From an uncultured Enterobacteriaceae bacterium (GTDB lineage Bacteria > Myxococcota_A > UBA9042), in assembly GCA_964356325.1 (NCBI GenBank), contig CAYHHL010000002.1, forward strand, positions 21,490 through 85,489: DNA of 64,000 bases. Direction: 5' to 3'. The notes under the pieces were generated by a model that searched no databases, was not told where the DNA came from, and was given only the letters and a program-made list of their open reading frames with translations. This document shows positions 12,618 through 54,618 of this stretch, one piece after another. Position numbers and translations under genes: made by a program. Positions within the stretch are counted from its first letter, which is position 1, and the number at the start of each line of letters is the position of its first letter.

Positions 12618-12830
12618 CCCCAGCCGGTTGCCCCGCGCAACTGGACATCGAGACCTGACCGGGGGGTTCGTGGCGCAAGCTGCGGGCCCCTCGGCCGTTT
12701 TTGCCCCGCCGTGCGCCGCCGTCCACGACCGCGCCCCGTCGCCGACCGGGGTCTTGGCGGATGGCGTCGCATCTGGCAGGGTACGCACGCCAGCCCGACC
12801 GTTGAACCCACTGTAGCCGCGAGGATCCTG

Positions 12831-15226: not shown

Positions 15227-15280
15227 ACATAGCCCGTCCGGGATGCCATGGGGCACAGGAAACGGGGCATGTGACGGCGC

Positions 15281-15319
15281 AAAGGCCATTCGTTCGCGCG
15301 AATGGCCTTTGTGGTTTTT
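15281..15319 (+). terminator. Rho-independent terminator downstream of tRNA-Ala
   Basis: A perfect 12-bp stem AAAGGCCATTCG / CGAATGGCCTTT with a 6-nt loop is followed by GTGGTTTTTG. Confidence 0.65.
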
Positions 15320-18375: not shown

Positions 18376-18529
18376 CCGGAGCCGTGGCCGGAGCCGAGGC
18401 CGGAGCCGGGAGCCCACGGCGGGAACGGACCTACGCCCGAACCCGAACCCGAACCCGAACCCGTTCCCGAGCCCGAACCCGTTCCCGAACCCGAACCCGT
18501 ACCCGAACCCGTGCCCGTCCCCGTCCCCG
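18376..18529. repeat. Intergenic hexanucleotide microsatellite: (GGAGCC)n followed by (CCGAAC/CCGTTC)n
   Basis: Reads gccggagccgtggccggagccgaggccggagcc...cccgaacccgaacccgaacccgaacccgttcccgagcccgaaccc..., abutting the rlmN stop. Its reverse complement is (GGTTCG)n(GGCTCC)n. Confidence 0.7.
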
Positions 18530-19702
18530 TCAACCCAGGGCCTTCTCCCCCGCCAACTGCCCACAAGCCGCGCCGATGTCTTGCCCTTTGGACTCGCGCA
18601 GGCTCACCGACGCACCGTGACGCCGCACCGTCTCCGCAAACGCCCGAATCACCGCGCGTTCCGGCCGCTGGTAGTCCGAGCCCGGCCAAGCATTGAACGG
18701 GATGACGTTGACGTGCGCGTTCAGTTCCAGCGCCATCTTCGCCAACCGTCGCGCGTCGTCCTGGCTGTCGTTCACGCCCTTGAGCAACGCGTATTCGAAG
18801 GTGATCTTACGGCTCTGGCTCGGCGGCAGATCGCGCAGGACCTGGACCATCCGCTCGATCGGTACGCCCTTGTTCACCGGCATCAGGCGGTCGCGCACCT
18901 CGTCGGTCGTCGCCGTCAGCGACCAGGCGAGATTGATGTGCGGATGCGCGGCGGCCAGCTTCGGCACGTTCTTGGCCAGGCCTGAAGTCGAGACCGTGAT
19001 GCGCCGCGGCGAGAAGTCGTAGCCCTTCGGATCGCAAAGGATGTCCAGGGCATCGAGCAGGGCCGCCAGGTTGTCCAGCGGTTCGCCCATGCCCATGAAC
19101 ACCAGGTTGTGCGGCCGCGCCGACAGCGGCCCATCCTGCCCGCCCGCCACGCCGCCGCGCCCCTGCCCTTGCGCGAACTGCAGGCGGCACGCGACAGCCA
19201 CCTGCTCGACGATTTCACCCGCGGTCAGGTCGGCCCGGTCGGGAATCCGCGCCGTCGCACAGAAGTCGCAGCCCATCTTGCAGCCGACCTGCGAGGAAAG
19301 GCATTGAGTCACAGTACTTGCGTCCGTTTCGCCGGTGTTCGCCTCCATGGGCATGATGACGGTCTCGATGCCGTGGCCTGCGCCGGTCGTGAGCACCAGC
19401 TTCTGCGAACCGTCGAGCTGCGATTGTCGATCCATTGTCATCGTCAAGACTTGCAGCGGCCGACTGAAGGCAAGCTGGCTGCGCAGGGCCGCGGGCAGGT
19501 CGGTCATCAGCGCCCAGTCGCGCACCAACCGCGCGTGCAGCCAGCGAAACACCTGCTCGGCCCGAAACGCCTTCTCGCCCGCCGCCACGAACGCCTGCAC
19601 CAGCTTGGGGCGCGGCAGCGAAAGCAAGTCCAGATCGCGAAAGGGCAAGTCCGTCTGTGGCGTTGGCGTCTGAATCGCGGTCGGTGGCAGGGCTGCGGGC
19701 AT
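18530..19702 (-). CDS. rlmN: 23S rRNA m2A2503 / tRNA m2A37 methyltransferase, radical SAM
   Basis: Carries the radical-SAM cluster motif GCKMGCDFCAT, MGMGEPLDN, and a C-terminus ...GQDIGAACGQLAG typical of RlmN. Start MPAALPPT. Confidence 0.9.
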   Translation of the reverse strand: MPAALPPTAIQTPTPQTDLPFRDLDLLSLPRPKLVQAFVAAGEKAFRAEQVFRWLHARLVRDWALMTDLPAALRSQLAFSRPLQVLTMTMDRQSQLDGSQKLVLTTGAGHGIETVIMPMEANTGETDASTVTQCLSSQVGCKMGCDFCATARIPDRADLTAGEIVEQVAVACRLQFAQGQGRGGVAGGQDGPLSARPHNLVFMGMGEPLDNLAALLDALDILCDPKGYDFSPRRITVSTSGLAKNVPKLAAAHPHINLAWSLTATTDEVRDRLMPVNKGVPIERMVQVLRDLPPSQSRKITFEYALLKGVNDSQDDARRLAKMALELNAHVNVIPFNAWPGSDYQRPERAVIRAFAETVRRHGASVSLRESKGQDIGAACGQLAGEKALG

Positions 19703-26489: not shown

Positions 26490-26490
26490 C

Positions 26491-26524
26491 CGCGTGGCGC
26501 CACGCGACTTTGTTTCGCTGCGCT
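26491..26524 (+). repeat. 34-bp element (copy 1) with a 16-bp perfect palindrome CGCGTGGCGCCACGCG; terminator-like hairpin and candidate operator
   Basis: cgcgtggcgccacgcgactttgtttcgctgcgct lies 1 nt after the reductase stop and about 31 nt before the lipoprotein ATG. It is identical to the reverse complement of 27866..27899. Confidence 0.6.
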
Positions 26525-26555
26525 CAGGTAAGAACCAGTCGGAGCTAGACCACCC

Positions 26556-27164
26556 ATGCTTCGAGTCAATATTTCTTTGGCGATTTGCCTTGTCATCTTG
26601 GGTTGTTCCGGCGCCCAGGTGTTGACTCCTGTGCCCGAGGACTTGCCCAAGGCCGACGGGCAGCGCCACTCGCTCGCCAATAGTCGCGCAAGTCTGCAGG
26701 CGCCCGTGCCATTTCGCGTGGTCGACGCGACGACGTGGGTGCTGCCGTTGGCGCCTGGCTCGGGCATCCTCGTGCACGTGCAGCGGGTCCAGGAGCCAGC
26801 CGAGGGGGCGATGGGCCACCTCGACAAGATGATCGCGGACCTGCAGAGGCAGGGCGAGGCCGATGTCGAGCGCGACGAGAAGATCCTGCTCGGCGATCTG
26901 GACGGCCGCTTCGTGCGGGCGCTGGAACTGCGAGCCAAGCCCGCCAAAGGGCTCTGGATGGTCGTGACAGTAGCCGAGGACGGCATGTACACGGTGACCG
27001 CGGCGGGCCCGCTGACCGCGCTGCGCGAACGGCAGGCCTTGCTGGAGTCGTTCCTGCTGTCGCTGCGCGTAGATCCGCCCGAAGGCACGGCGCGGCCGGT
27101 GCACAAGCAGGCCATCGCCGAAGACATCGACCTGCCGCAGCCCACCAGCCCGACGCAGCCGTAA
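26556..27164 (+). CDS. Lipoprotein, function unknown
   Basis: MLRVNISLAICLVILGCSG is a signal peptide plus lipobox ILGC. The gene starts with AT-richer codons. About 202 aa. Confidence 0.6.
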   Translation: MLRVNISLAICLVILGCSGAQVLTPVPEDLPKADGQRHSLANSRASLQAPVPFRVVDATTWVLPLAPGSGILVHVQRVQEPAEGAMGHLDKMIADLQRQGEADVERDEKILLGDLDGRFVRALELRAKPAKGLWMVVTVAEDGMYTVTAAGPLTALRERQALLESFLLSLRVDPPEGTARPVHKQAIAEDIDLPQPTSPTQP

Positions 27165-27171
27165 GGTCGGG

Positions 27172-27837
27172 TCAGAAAGCCCAGCCGACCGAGGCGCGGA
27201 CGTAGGGCACGATGCTGATTTCCTGGGCGGTCGCGGCGGGCGTCGAGGGATTGCGCGTGAACTTGTCGAGGAAGGCCACGGCGGCGCCAGCGGTGCCCTC
27301 CACGGTCAGGCCCAACGGCAGGATGGTGCGCGCGCCGACGAACAATCCGCCTGCCTTGCCGCTACCTTCCGAATACAGGGTGGTACCGAGATCGTGGTGG
27401 GTATCGATGGCGAAGACCGTGCCGCCGACCTTGACGCCATGGTCGAACGTGCCCAGCAGATAATACGCGCCCTCCAGACCGATGGTGATGCTGCGCACGC
27501 TGGCCAGGGTCGCATCGGTGCCGTCGCCCTTGCCGTACAGGCTGAGCAGGTAGCGATCGTCGTAGCCCAAACCAACGTAGCCGCTGAAGGTCAACTTCGG
27601 GTCCTGCGCCCATTCGCCGTGCAGCGTGTAACTCAAGGAAAGCGGGTTCTTGTAGTCGTCGCCGTAGCGCGTGCCGAGGCCGATCGCCAGCCAATGCGGC
27701 TTGGACGGCCTGGACCGCTCGACCGGGGTGTCGGCGTCGGTCTTGCCCCAGTTGTCATCGTTGGCGAACGCGGGCAACGCGAACAGCGCCAAGGCGAGCA
27801 GCACGGTCGAGAAGGTATTGAATCTGCGGCAATCCAA
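27172..27837 (-). CDS. Outer-membrane beta-barrel protein (about 221 aa)
   Basis: TTG start with GAGGTG RBS. Signal peptide (M)DCRRFNTFSTVLLALALFALPAFA. Alternating beta-strand pattern and a C-terminal ...SVGWAF with terminal Phe. Confidence 0.55.
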   Translation of the reverse strand: MDCRRFNTFSTVLLALALFALPAFANDDNWGKTDADTPVERSRPSKPHWLAIGLGTRYGDDYKNPLSLSYTLHGEWAQDPKLTFSGYVGLGYDDRYLLSLYGKGDGTDATLASVRSITIGLEGAYYLLGTFDHGVKVGGTVFAIDTHHDLGTTLYSEGSGKAGGLFVGARTILPLGLTVEGTAGAAVAFLDKFTRNPSTPAATAQEISIVPYVRASVGWAF

Positions 27838-27865
27838 AAAAGCACCTCGACTTAGCTCTCGAAGC

Positions 27866-27899
27866 AGCGCAGCGAAACAAAGTCGCGTGGCGCCACGCG
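27866..27899 (-). repeat. 34-bp palindromic element (copy 2, inverted orientation)
   Basis: The reverse complement equals copy 1 exactly. It lies about 28 nt upstream of the OMP TTG start and 17 nt downstream of the MFS stop. Confidence 0.6.
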
Positions 27900-27916
27900 G
27901 AAACAATGCTCGCGAC

Positions 27917-51802: not shown

Positions 51803-53218
51803 ATGACCTGCCTGGGACTTCGGCGCCTCCTCATCGCGGTGTGCCTGCTGACTGCAGGGCTCGCTCAAGCGGCGGAGCCCAAGGCTCAGGGCGCGCCTGA
51901 CGTCGACGCCGCCGTCGCCGCTCGCAAGGCCGGGCGCTACGAGGAGGCCGCGCAAATCCTGCTCGACTGGACCGCGGCGCATCCCAGCGATGCCAAGGCA
52001 TTGCATGAACTCGGCGTCTTGTACGCGCTGCATGGCCAGCTGCGCGATGCCGCCGCCCGGTTCGAAGCGACCCTCGCGCTGAATCCGGACGCGACCGAGA
52101 CACGTCGCAACCTGGCGGAAGTCCTGCGCGCCGACAATCGCTGTACGCAGGCGCTGCCGCACTACCGGACGCTGACGGGCGCGGACCTGAACGATCAGGT
52201 GGCCTTGCGCGGCATGGTGCTGTGTCGCCAGACGATGGGCCAAACCGACGCAGCGCTGCTGGTCTGTGCGGAAATCGAGCAACGCTTCGCCCAGACGCCG
52301 TTCGCGGAGTGGGCTCGCCAGCGTGCCGCGCAGATTCGCGCCCTGGCCCAAGCCGGAGCGGTGACTCCGCAGCAAGCCGACGCCGAAGGGGCTGCCCTGT
52401 TTGCAGAAAGGCGTTACGCGGATGCGGCGGCCTGGCTGGCCAAGGCGCTGGCGCTGCAACCGACTGCGGACCGGAGCTATCGCCTGGCGATGGCGCAGCT
52501 GGGCGCGGGGGACATGCTGCCGGCATTGGCCAGTCTGCAGCGGGCGTTGCAGATCGATTCGCACCACGTCGCGTCGCTTTCCGCGTGGCCGACCGTGGCC
52601 AAGGCCCTGCGTCTGCAAGGCAATGGCGGTGTCGACGTCGAGTTCGCGCGCCAGACGCGGACCCCGGTGCAAAGGGTGGCCAACGCGCTGGCCGAAGGCG
52701 ATCTGGTCCTGGCGCGACAACTGCTGAAAACGACACTGCAACCGGCCAAGGACGGCGACGGCAAGCTGCCGCCGGGCGCGGTGCTGGCGGTGCTGAACGG
52801 CGAAGTCCTGTTGCGCGAAGGCAAGCTGGCGCAAGCGGTGCAGGCATTCCAGGACGCGTTGCTGCAGCGACCCAAGTACCCCGCGGCGATCAAGGGGCTG
52901 GCAGCGGTGTACGTGTTGCAGGGCAGATACCAGGACGCAAGGGATCTCGCCAAGTTGCCAGCGCAAGCCAATGTCGCGCCTGACCACGCCCAGGACGATC
53001 TGCAGCGCTACGTGGCCCTGCGCCGCGCCGAGCTGATGCACCAGTTGCAGATGGCGGACGATCCAGGCCTGAAGCCCTTGCCGGCGCTGGTCGATCAGGT
53101 GGCCGATGCCACGCCGCCGCCACCTCCGCCGCCGCCACCTGCCGTTGAACCGGCGCCCGAGCCCGTCAAGGCCAAGGGCAAGGCGGCGACCAAGGGCAAG
53201 GCGGGTCGACGCAAGTGA
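51803..53218 (+). CDS. Secreted TPR-repeat protein with a Pro/Lys-rich tail
   Basis: Signal peptide MTCLGLRRLLIAVCLLTAGLAQA. Multiple TPR units (..AKALHELGVLYALHGQLRDAAARFEATLALNPD..). C-terminus [34 protein letters not shown]. Confidence 0.7.
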   Translation: MTCLGLRRLLIAVCLLTAGLAQAAEPKAQGAPDVDAAVAARKAGRYEEAAQILLDWTAAHPSDAKALHELGVLYALHGQLRDAAARFEATLALNPDATETRRNLAEVLRADNRCTQALPHYRTLTGADLNDQVALRGMVLCRQTMGQTDAALLVCAEIEQRFAQTPFAEWARQRAAQIRALAQAGAVTPQQADAEGAALFAERRYADAAAWLAKALALQPTADRSYRLAMAQLGAGDMLPALASLQRALQIDSHHVASLSAWPTVAKALRLQGNGGVDVEFARQTRTPVQRVANALAEGDLVLARQLLKTTLQPAKDGDGKLPPGAVLAVLNGEVLLREGKLAQAVQAFQDALLQRPKYPAAIKGLAAVYVLQGRYQDARDLAKLPAQANVAPDHAQDDLQRYVALRRAELMHQLQMADDPGLKPLPALVDQVADATPPPPPPPPPAVEPAPEPVKAKGKAATKGKAGRRK

Positions 53219-54618
53219 GTTCAAGGCCAGCGGATTCACCCGACGTTCAAACGGACGGCAGCGGCAGCTTGCGCGGCACGGTGCTCATGCCGGCGGCGGA
53301 CGGCTCGGTAGGGTTGCTGGAGGATGCGGTCATCCGGTGGGAATCTGGGCGGATCGTGGGGGTCGAACCTTCGGGGTCGGGGTCGGGTTCGGGATCGGGT
53401 TCGGGTTCGGGTTCGGGTGCGGGTTCGGGTTCGAGTTCGGGTTCGGGCATGAGTTCCGGCTCCGGTTCCGGCTCCGGTTCCGGCTCCGGCCCCGGCTCCG
53501 GTTCCGGTTCCGGCTCAAGCTCCGGCGAGTGGCTCCTCCTGCCCGGCTTCGTCGACCTGCACTGCCACTGGCCGCAAGCCCACGTGCGCGGTCAGTTTTC
53601 TGGCCAGCTGCTGCCCTGGCTGCGCGAGTCGATCTGGCCTGCCGAAGCCGCCTTTGCCGATGCCGAGGTCGCGCGCGTGCGGGCCCAGGCGTTCCTGCGC
53701 GAGGCGATTGCGGCTGGCACTTGCGCCGGGCTGCTGTTCGGCCCGCCGTTTCTCGAAGCGAGCTTGCAGTTCCTGAGGTTGGCGCCGCGCGGCTTCTTCG
53801 ATGGCCCGGCGCTGATGGAGGCGCACGCTCCCGAAGCGCTGTTGCGACCGGCCGCGCACACGCTGGACGCCCTGGCCGGCCTGCCGCCCGAAGTGCGCGA
53901 ACGCCTGGTGATTTCTCCCCGTTTTGCCCCGAGCCTGACCGCCGAGGGGCTGGTGCAGTGCGGAGCGGCGGTGCAGGCGTTGGCACTGGCCGCGCAAAGC
54001 CACCTCTCGGAGAACCTGGACGAGATCGCCTGGGTGCGCGAGCTGTTCCCACAAGCCATTGATTATACAGACGTCTATGATCGCGCCGGCTTGCTGGGCC
54101 CGCGCACGGTGATGGCCCACGGCGTGCATCTGTCCGCGCGCGAACTGGATCGGCTGGCGGCGACCGGCACGATGCTCGCGCACTGCCCGACCAGCAACGC
54201 GGCGCTGGGCAGCGGTCGCATGCCCCTGGAACTCATTCGTAAACACGGGGTGGACTGGGTGCTGGCAACCGACGTGGGTGCGGGCCCCTTGCTCAGCCAA
54301 TTGGACGTGATGCGCGCCTGCCTGGAGCAGCACGCCGGGCACGCCGAGATCGCCGCGACGGAAGCGTTGAGCCGCAGCACGGCGATTCCAGGCGCATTCC
54401 TGGCACGGCTGGATCCGACGCTGGCCGGTCTGGGCACCTTCGAACCTGGAGCGCCCGCCCACATCGTCGCGCTGCCCCGGCCCGCAGGGCGCGCCGATGC
54501 CGAAGGTCTGCTGCGATCGCTGCTGAAGACGCCGCGCGAGGCCTTGGAGACGTTGCCGCTTCAGGTGGTGTCGTGGGGCGTGACGCAAGGTCCCGAGGCG
54601 CTGCACCGGCCGCTGTGA
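53215..54618 (+). CDS. guaD: Guanine deaminase (amidohydrolase superfamily) with an internal Ser/Gly repeat insertion
   Basis: [12 protein letters not shown] is the HxH site. [37 protein letters not shown] and ATDVGAG align closely to E. coli GuaD. A 52-aa (SG)n insert lies between the N-terminal beta-sandwich strand and the HxH motif. GTG start overlaps the upstream stop. Confidence 0.85.
53371..53526 (+). repeat. Coding hexanucleotide microsatellite (GGGTTC)n(GGCTCC)n, frame-neutral, encoding (SG)n
   Basis: tcggggtcggggtcgggttcgggatcgggttcgggttcggg...ggctccggttccggctccggttccggc. Same unit family as the intergenic repeat at 18376..18529. Confidence 0.8.

Follow-up and report, generated by a model that had tools for sequence, protein, structure and literature searches.

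A mirrored 35-nt stem-loop element at two junctions of a convergent four-gene locus, possibly an intercistronic RNA element of a Myxococcota-like lineage

The window analysed here, a 64,000-nt stretch of contig CAYHHL010000002.1 (positions 21,490 to 85,489) from an uncultured Myxococcota-like bacterium, contains a 35-nt element in two identical, mirrored copies. The left copy lies between a nitrite/sulfite reductase-like gene and a lipoprotein gene, and the right copy between a major facilitator superfamily (MFS) transporter gene and a small outer-membrane β-barrel gene that converges on the lipoprotein gene (Table 1). Judged from the sequences searched, outside which the rest of the window's own genome lies, the element is locus-specific and non-coding, and is not a generic repetitive extragenic palindromic (REP)-like sequence. 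Its anatomy and placement point to an intercistronic stem-loop of the sense transcript, acting as a leaky terminator and/or as a barrier to 3'-to-5' decay; this reading is favoured here tentatively, with a confidence that stops a little short of even.

The first-pass annotation of this stretch had described a 34-bp element present in two identical, mirrored copies, and the coordinates are borne out. The 34-mer matches the window exactly twice with 0 mismatches, at 26491-26524 (+) and 27866-27899 (-), and is absent from 100 of 100 dinucleotide-preserving shuffles. The identity even extends 1 nt further, to a full repeat of 35 nt that is 100% complementary between two arms separated by 1341 nt. 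The perfect 16-bp palindrome reported inside it, CGCGTGGCGCCACGCG, is located in both copies (26491-26506 and 27884-27899), followed by ACTTTGTTTC and then by GCTGCGCT. The distances to the flanking genes are likewise right, with the same gene limits obtained from independent gene calls on the ENA contigs: the left 34-mer lies 1 nt after the reductase stop (gene end 26489) and 31 nt before the lipoprotein ATG (26556), and the right 34-mer lies 17 nt after the MFS stop (gene end 27917) and 28 nt before the TTG of the outer-membrane gene (27837). Hexanucleotide arrays apart, this is the sole perfect long repeat of the window. It is seen in two independent assemblies (L001 and L002) and is therefore not an assembly artefact. 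A 1401-nt Logan unitig (L003) starts and ends inside the two arms, because a 35-nt repeat at k = 31 is expected to break the assembly graph, and short-read assemblies may be fragmented or mis-joined at this repeat.

Related contigs were reached from the reductase, lipoprotein and barrel proteins through their homologues. Sequence identity of the reductase and MFS proteins groups the relatives as ((window, L004), (L005, L171)), followed by L006 and then by more distant lineages, and the element is confined to this five-genome clade, where six copies are found at one or both junctions. The window has 35/35 positions at the left junction (reductase to lipoprotein) and at the right junction (MFS to barrel). 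L004 carries a left copy with 5 changes, its contig ending before the right junction, and L006 carries the exact 35-mer on the left and no element on the right. In L005 and L171 the left junction is devoid of the element and the right junction holds a copy with 4 and 9 changes, respectively. All six copies begin 0-16 nt past the upstream stop, oriented as the flanking genes, and five of the six end 28-33 nt short of the start codon.

Across these copies the 35-mer retains 26-35 of its 35 positions. The spacers between element and start codon are at shuffle-level similarity, both in the comparison of left with right (p = 0.87) and among right-hand orthologues, whereas similarity persists between the spacers of the orthologous window-left and L004-left copies (p = 0.03). 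Left/right intergenic homology extending past the 35 nt was considered and dismissed on the former value. Since the spacers have diverged to chance while the 35-mer has been kept, the element is a discrete conserved block with sharp borders. In the comparison with L006, in which the reductase C-terminus is 71% and the MFS protein 85% identical to the window proteins at the amino-acid level, only a 45-nt run in the MFS gene exceeds the exact match of 35/36 nt over 7.1 kb. The element probably has a function, because it is conserved in relatives.

The locus into which the element was placed is older than the element. The order reductase-lipoprotein-barrel-MFS is kept with one arm (L005, L006 and L171) or with none (L009 and L177). 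Overlapping or abutting genes are seen in L177 and L180 for the reductase and the lipoprotein, and in L177 also for the MFS transporter and the barrel. Intergenic distances of only 18-43 nt are found at the right junctions of L006 and L009 (18-24 nt in these two) and at the left junction of L007. From this overlap and short spacing we infer co-transcription with the upstream genes: since the genes overlap or abut in distant relatives, the lipoprotein and barrel genes would ancestrally have been co-transcribed with the reductase and MFS genes. Judged from gene spacing, the ancestral state is thus a pair of tight convergent operons, inside which the element was added later.

In the sense transcript, the palindrome folds into the predicted stem CGCGUG-GCGC-CACGCG, with 6 pairs (5 of them G-C) around a 4-nt loop and a folding energy of -9.9 kcal/mol. 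Both window copies present this hairpin followed by a T-rich run, in sense with the upstream gene, and both pass a terminator scan. When 110 nt of transcript are folded, the palindrome hairpin prevails in the predicted ensemble, its mean pair probability being 0.86-0.98. Alternative pairings, of the 5' half with the tail or of GCGA with UCGC, fit the sequences and were discarded, as they show no covariation and have a probability of about 0 in context. Across the six copies the hairpin is 94% paired. L171 carries one compensatory double change from G-C to U-A that leaves the dyad symmetry perfect, and L004 carries two changes that yield U-G and G-U pairs, a pairing that holds in the sense-strand RNA only. 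At the DNA level, the window, L006 and L171 have a perfect dyad, which is broken at 2-3 positions in L004 and at 1 in L005. In sequence, neither the central GCGC nor the tail varies. At the L005 left junction, a very stable and unrelated 12-bp hairpin (2889-2920) stands 2 nt past the reductase stop, the whole intergenic region scoring z = -5.1 against shuffles, which suggests that a stem-loop as such is useful there.

These features are consistent with an element that would have arisen inside the two convergent operons, reductase-lipoprotein and MFS-outer-membrane protein, its second copy having come about by copying within the locus. The G+C-rich stem-loop with its U-rich single strand would serve as a weak intrinsic terminator and/or a decay barrier, and the U-rich strand beside the stem would offer a nearby cleavage-prone processing site. 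Fewer transcripts would reach the downstream envelope gene, whose expression would be lowered and uncoupled from that of the upstream gene. The upstream message would in turn acquire a protected 3' end, and less polymerase would enter the terminator-less convergent gene pair. Action as RNA is supported by the lack of a sigma-70-like promoter between the element and either start codon. The first-pass annotation had proposed a dual-purpose hairpin, terminating or insulating the upstream gene and serving as a shared operator or leader element for the downstream pair; its first half is upheld by the terminator-like anatomy in sense orientation (hairpin, T-rich run, position after the stop), and its second half is weighed below and found unlikely.

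Intercistronic protective stem-loops are an established mechanism, exemplified by the REP hairpin of E. coli malE-malF and the stem-loop of the Rhodobacter puf operon (PMC5927463). The element resembles these in being a stem-loop between co-directional operon genes, placed right after the upstream stop and conserved among relatives, and the likeness would predict unequal mRNA levels upstream and downstream. It differs from them in its short stem (6-8 bp), in the conserved 13-nt tail that follows, and in the occurrence of the same 35 nt at two junctions, mirrored around a convergent pair. With intrinsic terminators, leaky intra-operon ones included, it shares a G+C-rich hairpin, sense orientation, a position after a stop and, in the window copy, a U-rich run. 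Unlike these, its U-tract decays in relatives while hairpin and tail stay, and its stability is no better than that of shuffles; nor are intrinsic terminators normally identical at two sites, or across genomes whose neighbouring proteins are 54-85% identical.

Several observations weigh against a terminator or decay barrier. The covariation is not significant, being equalled by 75 of 500 shuffles for the 6 sequences. The hairpin is modest, with a folding energy no better than that of shuffles (z -1.3 to +0.4), and terminator-like consensus matches in the window are overall not commoner than chance. The clear terminators of this genome have 16-bp stems: two strong canonical terminators with such stems and a T5 run stand at 12659-12694 and 15278-15313 (+), and the genome therefore uses intrinsic terminators far stronger than the element. 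The U-tract is not conserved, reading TTTGTTT in the window, CTTGGTT in L005 and AGAGTTT in L171. The post-stem sequence is ACUUUGUUUC in the window and L006, the window copy having 6 U in 10 nt, and is poorer in U in L004 (ACUUCGUUUC), L005 (ACCUUGGUUC) and L171 (GAAGAGUUUC). The 3' tail GTTTCGCYGCGCT, needless for a simple terminator, is nearly invariant and the best-conserved part of the element. At the left junction of L171, where the element is absent, no notable structure takes its place. Lastly, the window-left, window-right and distant L006 copies show 0 changes, against 5, 4 and 9 in the nearer L004, L005 and L171. The changes in these three are private, the sisters L005 and L171 having none in common. 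Gene conversion would keep the two window copies alike, yet not identical to L006, and the uneven rates would reflect either a lineage-specific constraint or an unseen source of copies.

The palindrome could instead work as DNA. In this case it would be an operator, maybe part of a promoter, at which a dimeric regulator recognising the palindrome, with or without the tail, co-regulates the lipoprotein and outer-membrane genes from promoters of their own. The perfect 16-bp dyad, the symmetric double change in L171 that keeps it, a central GCGC and tail whose invariance suits sequence-specific recognition, and the 28-33 nt to the start codon in five of the six copies are all in line with such a site. 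However, only about 30 nt are left for promoter and leader, a sigma-70 scan detects no -35/-10 pair in or after the element on the correct strand, and no GG-N10-GC sigma-54 spacing is visible by eye. Promoter readings as such were rejected on either strand, sigma-70 by scan and sigma-54 and extracytoplasmic function (ECF)-type by eye, for want of a convincing match. Furthermore, the palindrome has no other site in the window and thus recurs in no other intergenic region of the 64 kb, the L004 copy breaks the dyad, no regulator gene specific to the element-bearing clade is found, and the ancestral gene overlap indicates operon transcription. An operator is unlikely on balance, while retaining a real chance.

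Two further proposals give the whole 35 nt a role. One, speculative and with a small chance of being right, takes the 35-mer for a dedicated cis-regulatory motif of this lineage, hairpin plus tail GUUUCGCYGCGCU, read by a putative trans factor (a protein or a small RNA) that couples the barrel and the PsbP/DcrB-like lipoprotein to two convergent metabolic and transport operons, or else has the mirrored copies pair in read-through RNA as a 35-bp duplex that triggers clearance of convergent transcripts by ribonuclease III (RNase III). Both versions would account for identity across all 35 nt, not merely across the stem. The other, which appears quite doubtful, makes the element a binding site within a leader RNA common to the two genes, where a small RNA or an RNA-binding protein binds the same hairpin and tail and controls both envelope messages. 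The most conserved part of the element is then the very tail that is superfluous for a terminator, two envelope genes have the same sequence about 30 nt before their starts, and the sense-strand hairpin has been preserved. Nevertheless, no complementary sequence occurs elsewhere in the window, Rfam returns sub-threshold noise only, with no match, and no trans-acting factor is identified. Three of the five clade genomes have the element at just one gene of the pair, which means that joint control is not conserved.

A dispersed repeat family of low copy number, REP-like or a miniature mobile element, that inserts after stops and has its master sequence elsewhere in the genome is an improbable source of the copies. 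A source of this kind would suit the identity of window-left, window-right and distant L006 while nearer L004, L005 and L171 differ at 4-9 positions, as well as the sharp identity borders, the patchy presence at the two junctions and the palindromic extragenic character of a sequence following stops. The distribution argues otherwise: across about 173 kb from at least ten genomes, all six copies sit at the two junctions of one locus, among about 100 other intergenic regions. Further copies with up to 9-11 substitutions, or matching the tail alone, are found neither in the window nor in the flanks of the relatives. A covariance model built from the six copies (window left, window right, L004, L005, L006 and L171) scores these at 50-61 bits; with filters off, it finds in the window, beyond the two copies, only the opposite-strand palindrome at 24 and 20 bits, the next match reaching 13 bits, and it finds no extra copy in about 109 kb from ten related loci. 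The exact 25-mer has 0 matches in 185,579 GTDB species genomes, a collection that does not hold the window's own genome. The first-pass annotation had named a generic REP-like terminator after hundreds of genes as the competing view, and the lack of extra copies in the window and its relatives speaks against that view.

Looser searches return chance matches only. For the degenerate 20-mer core CGCGACYTYGKTTCGCTGCG, 68 genome and 93 JGI metagenome loci are listed (162 matches), and the best matches inspected are all due to chance: they are coding DNA of unrelated phyla with RDLGSLR-type codons and have unrelated sequence where the hairpin is expected. The one double core match (L083) is an unrelated long inverted repeat, and the match in L107 is coding sequence. 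Nothing matching the element appears in a viral contig scan or in plasmid blastn searches, and the literature on the sequence and on REPs in Myxococcus yields nothing relevant. Contig P0005 is from the same organism as L171 and adds no new variant. A small peptide encoded by the element was dismissed, as the left copy has a stop directly upstream and no start codon.

Neither insertion machinery nor insertion scars accompany the copies. There is no transposase nearby and no target-site duplication, the outer flanks (...GCAGCATAG before one copy and GAAACAATGC after the other) having no direct repeat. The differing stop-codon offsets are explained by partial local duplications: the larger ones, at window-right and L006-left, coincide with apparent partial duplicates of element parts, seen by eye at L006 374-388 just upstream of its copy, where TCGCGTGCTGGGGCC resembles the element's 5' half, and at the window stretch given in Table 1. 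Such partial duplicates suggest slippage at the hairpin. REPs and REPINs, which are mobilised by REP-associated tyrosine (Y1) transposases (RAYTs), are, like the element, palindromic extragenic sequences of about 35 nt that follow stops and form two inverted copies. They differ in that the element here has two copies in 64 kb, at one locus, occurs in relatives only at orthologous junctions, and has arms 1341 nt apart rather than tens of nucleotides.

Inverted recombination sites or terminal inverted repeats can delimit gene modules, as in the pdif modules of Acinetobacter plasmids and in composite or miniature inverted-repeat transposable element (MITE)-like elements. Two genes between perfect inverted repeats resemble such a module, and the first-pass annotation had indeed suggested a self-contained, possibly mobile two-gene envelope cassette. 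This suggestion does not hold, as the four-gene order is kept with one arm or none. Nor is the lipoprotein/outer-membrane pair an independent unit, its members being ancestral operon partners of the upstream genes. In contrast to pdif or MITE-like modules, the same neighbours are present here with one arm or none, the target duplication and the recombinase are lacking, and the flanked genes are operon partners of the flanking genes. No recombinase or transposase is encoded within about 10 kb of the repeat, and no RAYT gene is among the Pfam-annotated genes in that range, no search having been aimed at RAYT. Empty sites of the whole unit are not seen in L005, L006, L171, L009 or L177, where the gene order is intact. 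A foreign origin of the flanked segment was rejected, since its G+C content is like that of its surroundings.

Lastly, it is highly improbable that the arms function as a pair, either as recombination sites that invert the 1.3-kb segment or as a 35-bp double-stranded RNA in read-through transcripts cleaved by RNase III: the perfect 35-bp repeats 1341 nt apart, the terminator-less 7 nt between the convergent genes, the -77.8 kcal/mol predicted for a duplex between the left arm and right-arm antisense, and the identity of the arms in the only known genome with both would fit, but one arm is enough for three related genomes, a single orientation is seen at the assembly level in L001, L002 and every relative, no invertase or other recombinase lies within about 10 kb, inversion would switch neither gene off, and the identity with single-arm L006 is left unexplained.

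Table 1 Features of the element and the four genes around it (window coordinates)
Feature	Position	Strand	Description
Left copy of the 35-nt element	26490..26524	+	Palindrome 26491-26506, T-rich linker ACTTTG, conserved tail GTTTCGCTGCGCT; abuts the stop of the sulfite-reductase-like gene; covariance model 59.4 bits
Right copy of the 35-nt element	27866..27900	-	Same sequence as left copy; 16 nt past the MFS stop; covariance model 61.5 bits
16-nt stretch GTCGCGAGCATTGTTT between MFS stop and right copy	27901..27916	-	Resembles a partial duplicate of element-internal CGCGACTTTGTTTC; read by eye
Second, weaker hairpin just downstream of right copy	27843..27866	-	8 pairs, 3 G-C; covers barrel gene Shine-Dalgarno GAGG, then T6 and TTG start; consensus match only
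NirA-family nitrite/sulfite reductase-like gene, 590 amino acids	24717..26489	+	Pfam NIR_SIR and NIR_SIR_ferr; NCBIfam NirA family below cutoff; gene call on L001
Lipoprotein gene, 202 amino acids	26556..27164	+	Lipobox ILGC|SG; predicted PsbP / DcrB / Mog1-like fold
Gap between convergent lipoprotein and outer-membrane gene stops, 7 nt	27165..27171		No terminator inside; 0-29 nt in relatives
Small outer-membrane β-barrel gene, 221 amino acids	27172..27837	-	TTG start, signal peptide MDCRRFNTFSTVLLALALFALPAFA, C-terminal ...GWAF, 8 predicted strands
MFS transporter gene, 478 amino acids	27917..29353	-	Nearest the organophosphate:phosphate antiporter group (GlpT / PgtP), below family cutoffs

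The four-gene neighbourhood, in which the NirA-like reductase and lipoprotein genes converge on the GlpT/PgtP-like MFS and barrel genes, is kept in the Myxococcota-like clade. Neither the lipoprotein nor the barrel protein matches a Pfam or NCBIfam family, and both families are tiny, with 8 and 3 clusters, respectively, among 5.8 billion proteins. Cys17-Ser18 of the lipoprotein is invariant among 8 homologues, and its confident structure model (predicted local distance difference test (pLDDT) 80) has Foldseek matches to PsbP and DcrB with E values of about 1e-6. The barrel model (pLDDT 63) has 8 strands and low-confidence Foldseek matches to NspA, OmpW and OmpA. The label "envelope genes" used for the pair in the first-pass annotation is reasonable, because the lipobox, the signal peptide and the predicted folds, the barrel among them, agree with it. 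Two further conserved neighbours, of 76 and 547 amino acids, were considered as local regulators and dismissed, having no Pfam match. The second, terminator-like hairpin (27843-27866), which encloses the ribosome-binding sequence of the barrel gene, could affect its translation initiation.

Other non-coding sequences are present in the neighbourhood and in the window. In distant relatives, a different intergenic hairpin, CCC[GA]CCC...GGG[TC]GGG, is found at L178 6753-6857, L179 3442-3577 and L180 7368-7506; it is followed by TATTCGC and, after about 9 nt, by TTTTGCCGCGG or similar. The motif follows the reductase gene in L178 and L179 and the lipoprotein gene in L180, and may be another conserved non-coding element of this neighbourhood. 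A (CCGGAR)n array lies exactly between the lipoprotein and barrel stops of L177 (7400-7474). In the window, the hexanucleotide arrays (CCCGAA)n and (TTCGGG)n, at 18424-18537 and 53358-53519, are 80-88% complementary to each other; the former occupies the convergent intergenic region between a 403-amino-acid gene and rlmN, and the latter is translated, close to the N-terminus of the open reading frame 53215-54618, as a (Gly-Ser)n linker.

In conclusion, elements of this kind should not be labelled as mobile-element ends or REPs in annotation. The 35-mer is a small conserved non-coding motif for transcriptome studies that opens no major question; novelty could come only from its conserved tail and its uneven rate of evolution. 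If the reading as an intercistronic RNA stem-loop is true, a single short RNA element has come, by copying, to flank a convergent gene pair on both sides, where it would tune the flow of transcription from two operons into the terminator-less, head-on envelope genes of a little-studied, uncultured Myxococcota-like lineage.

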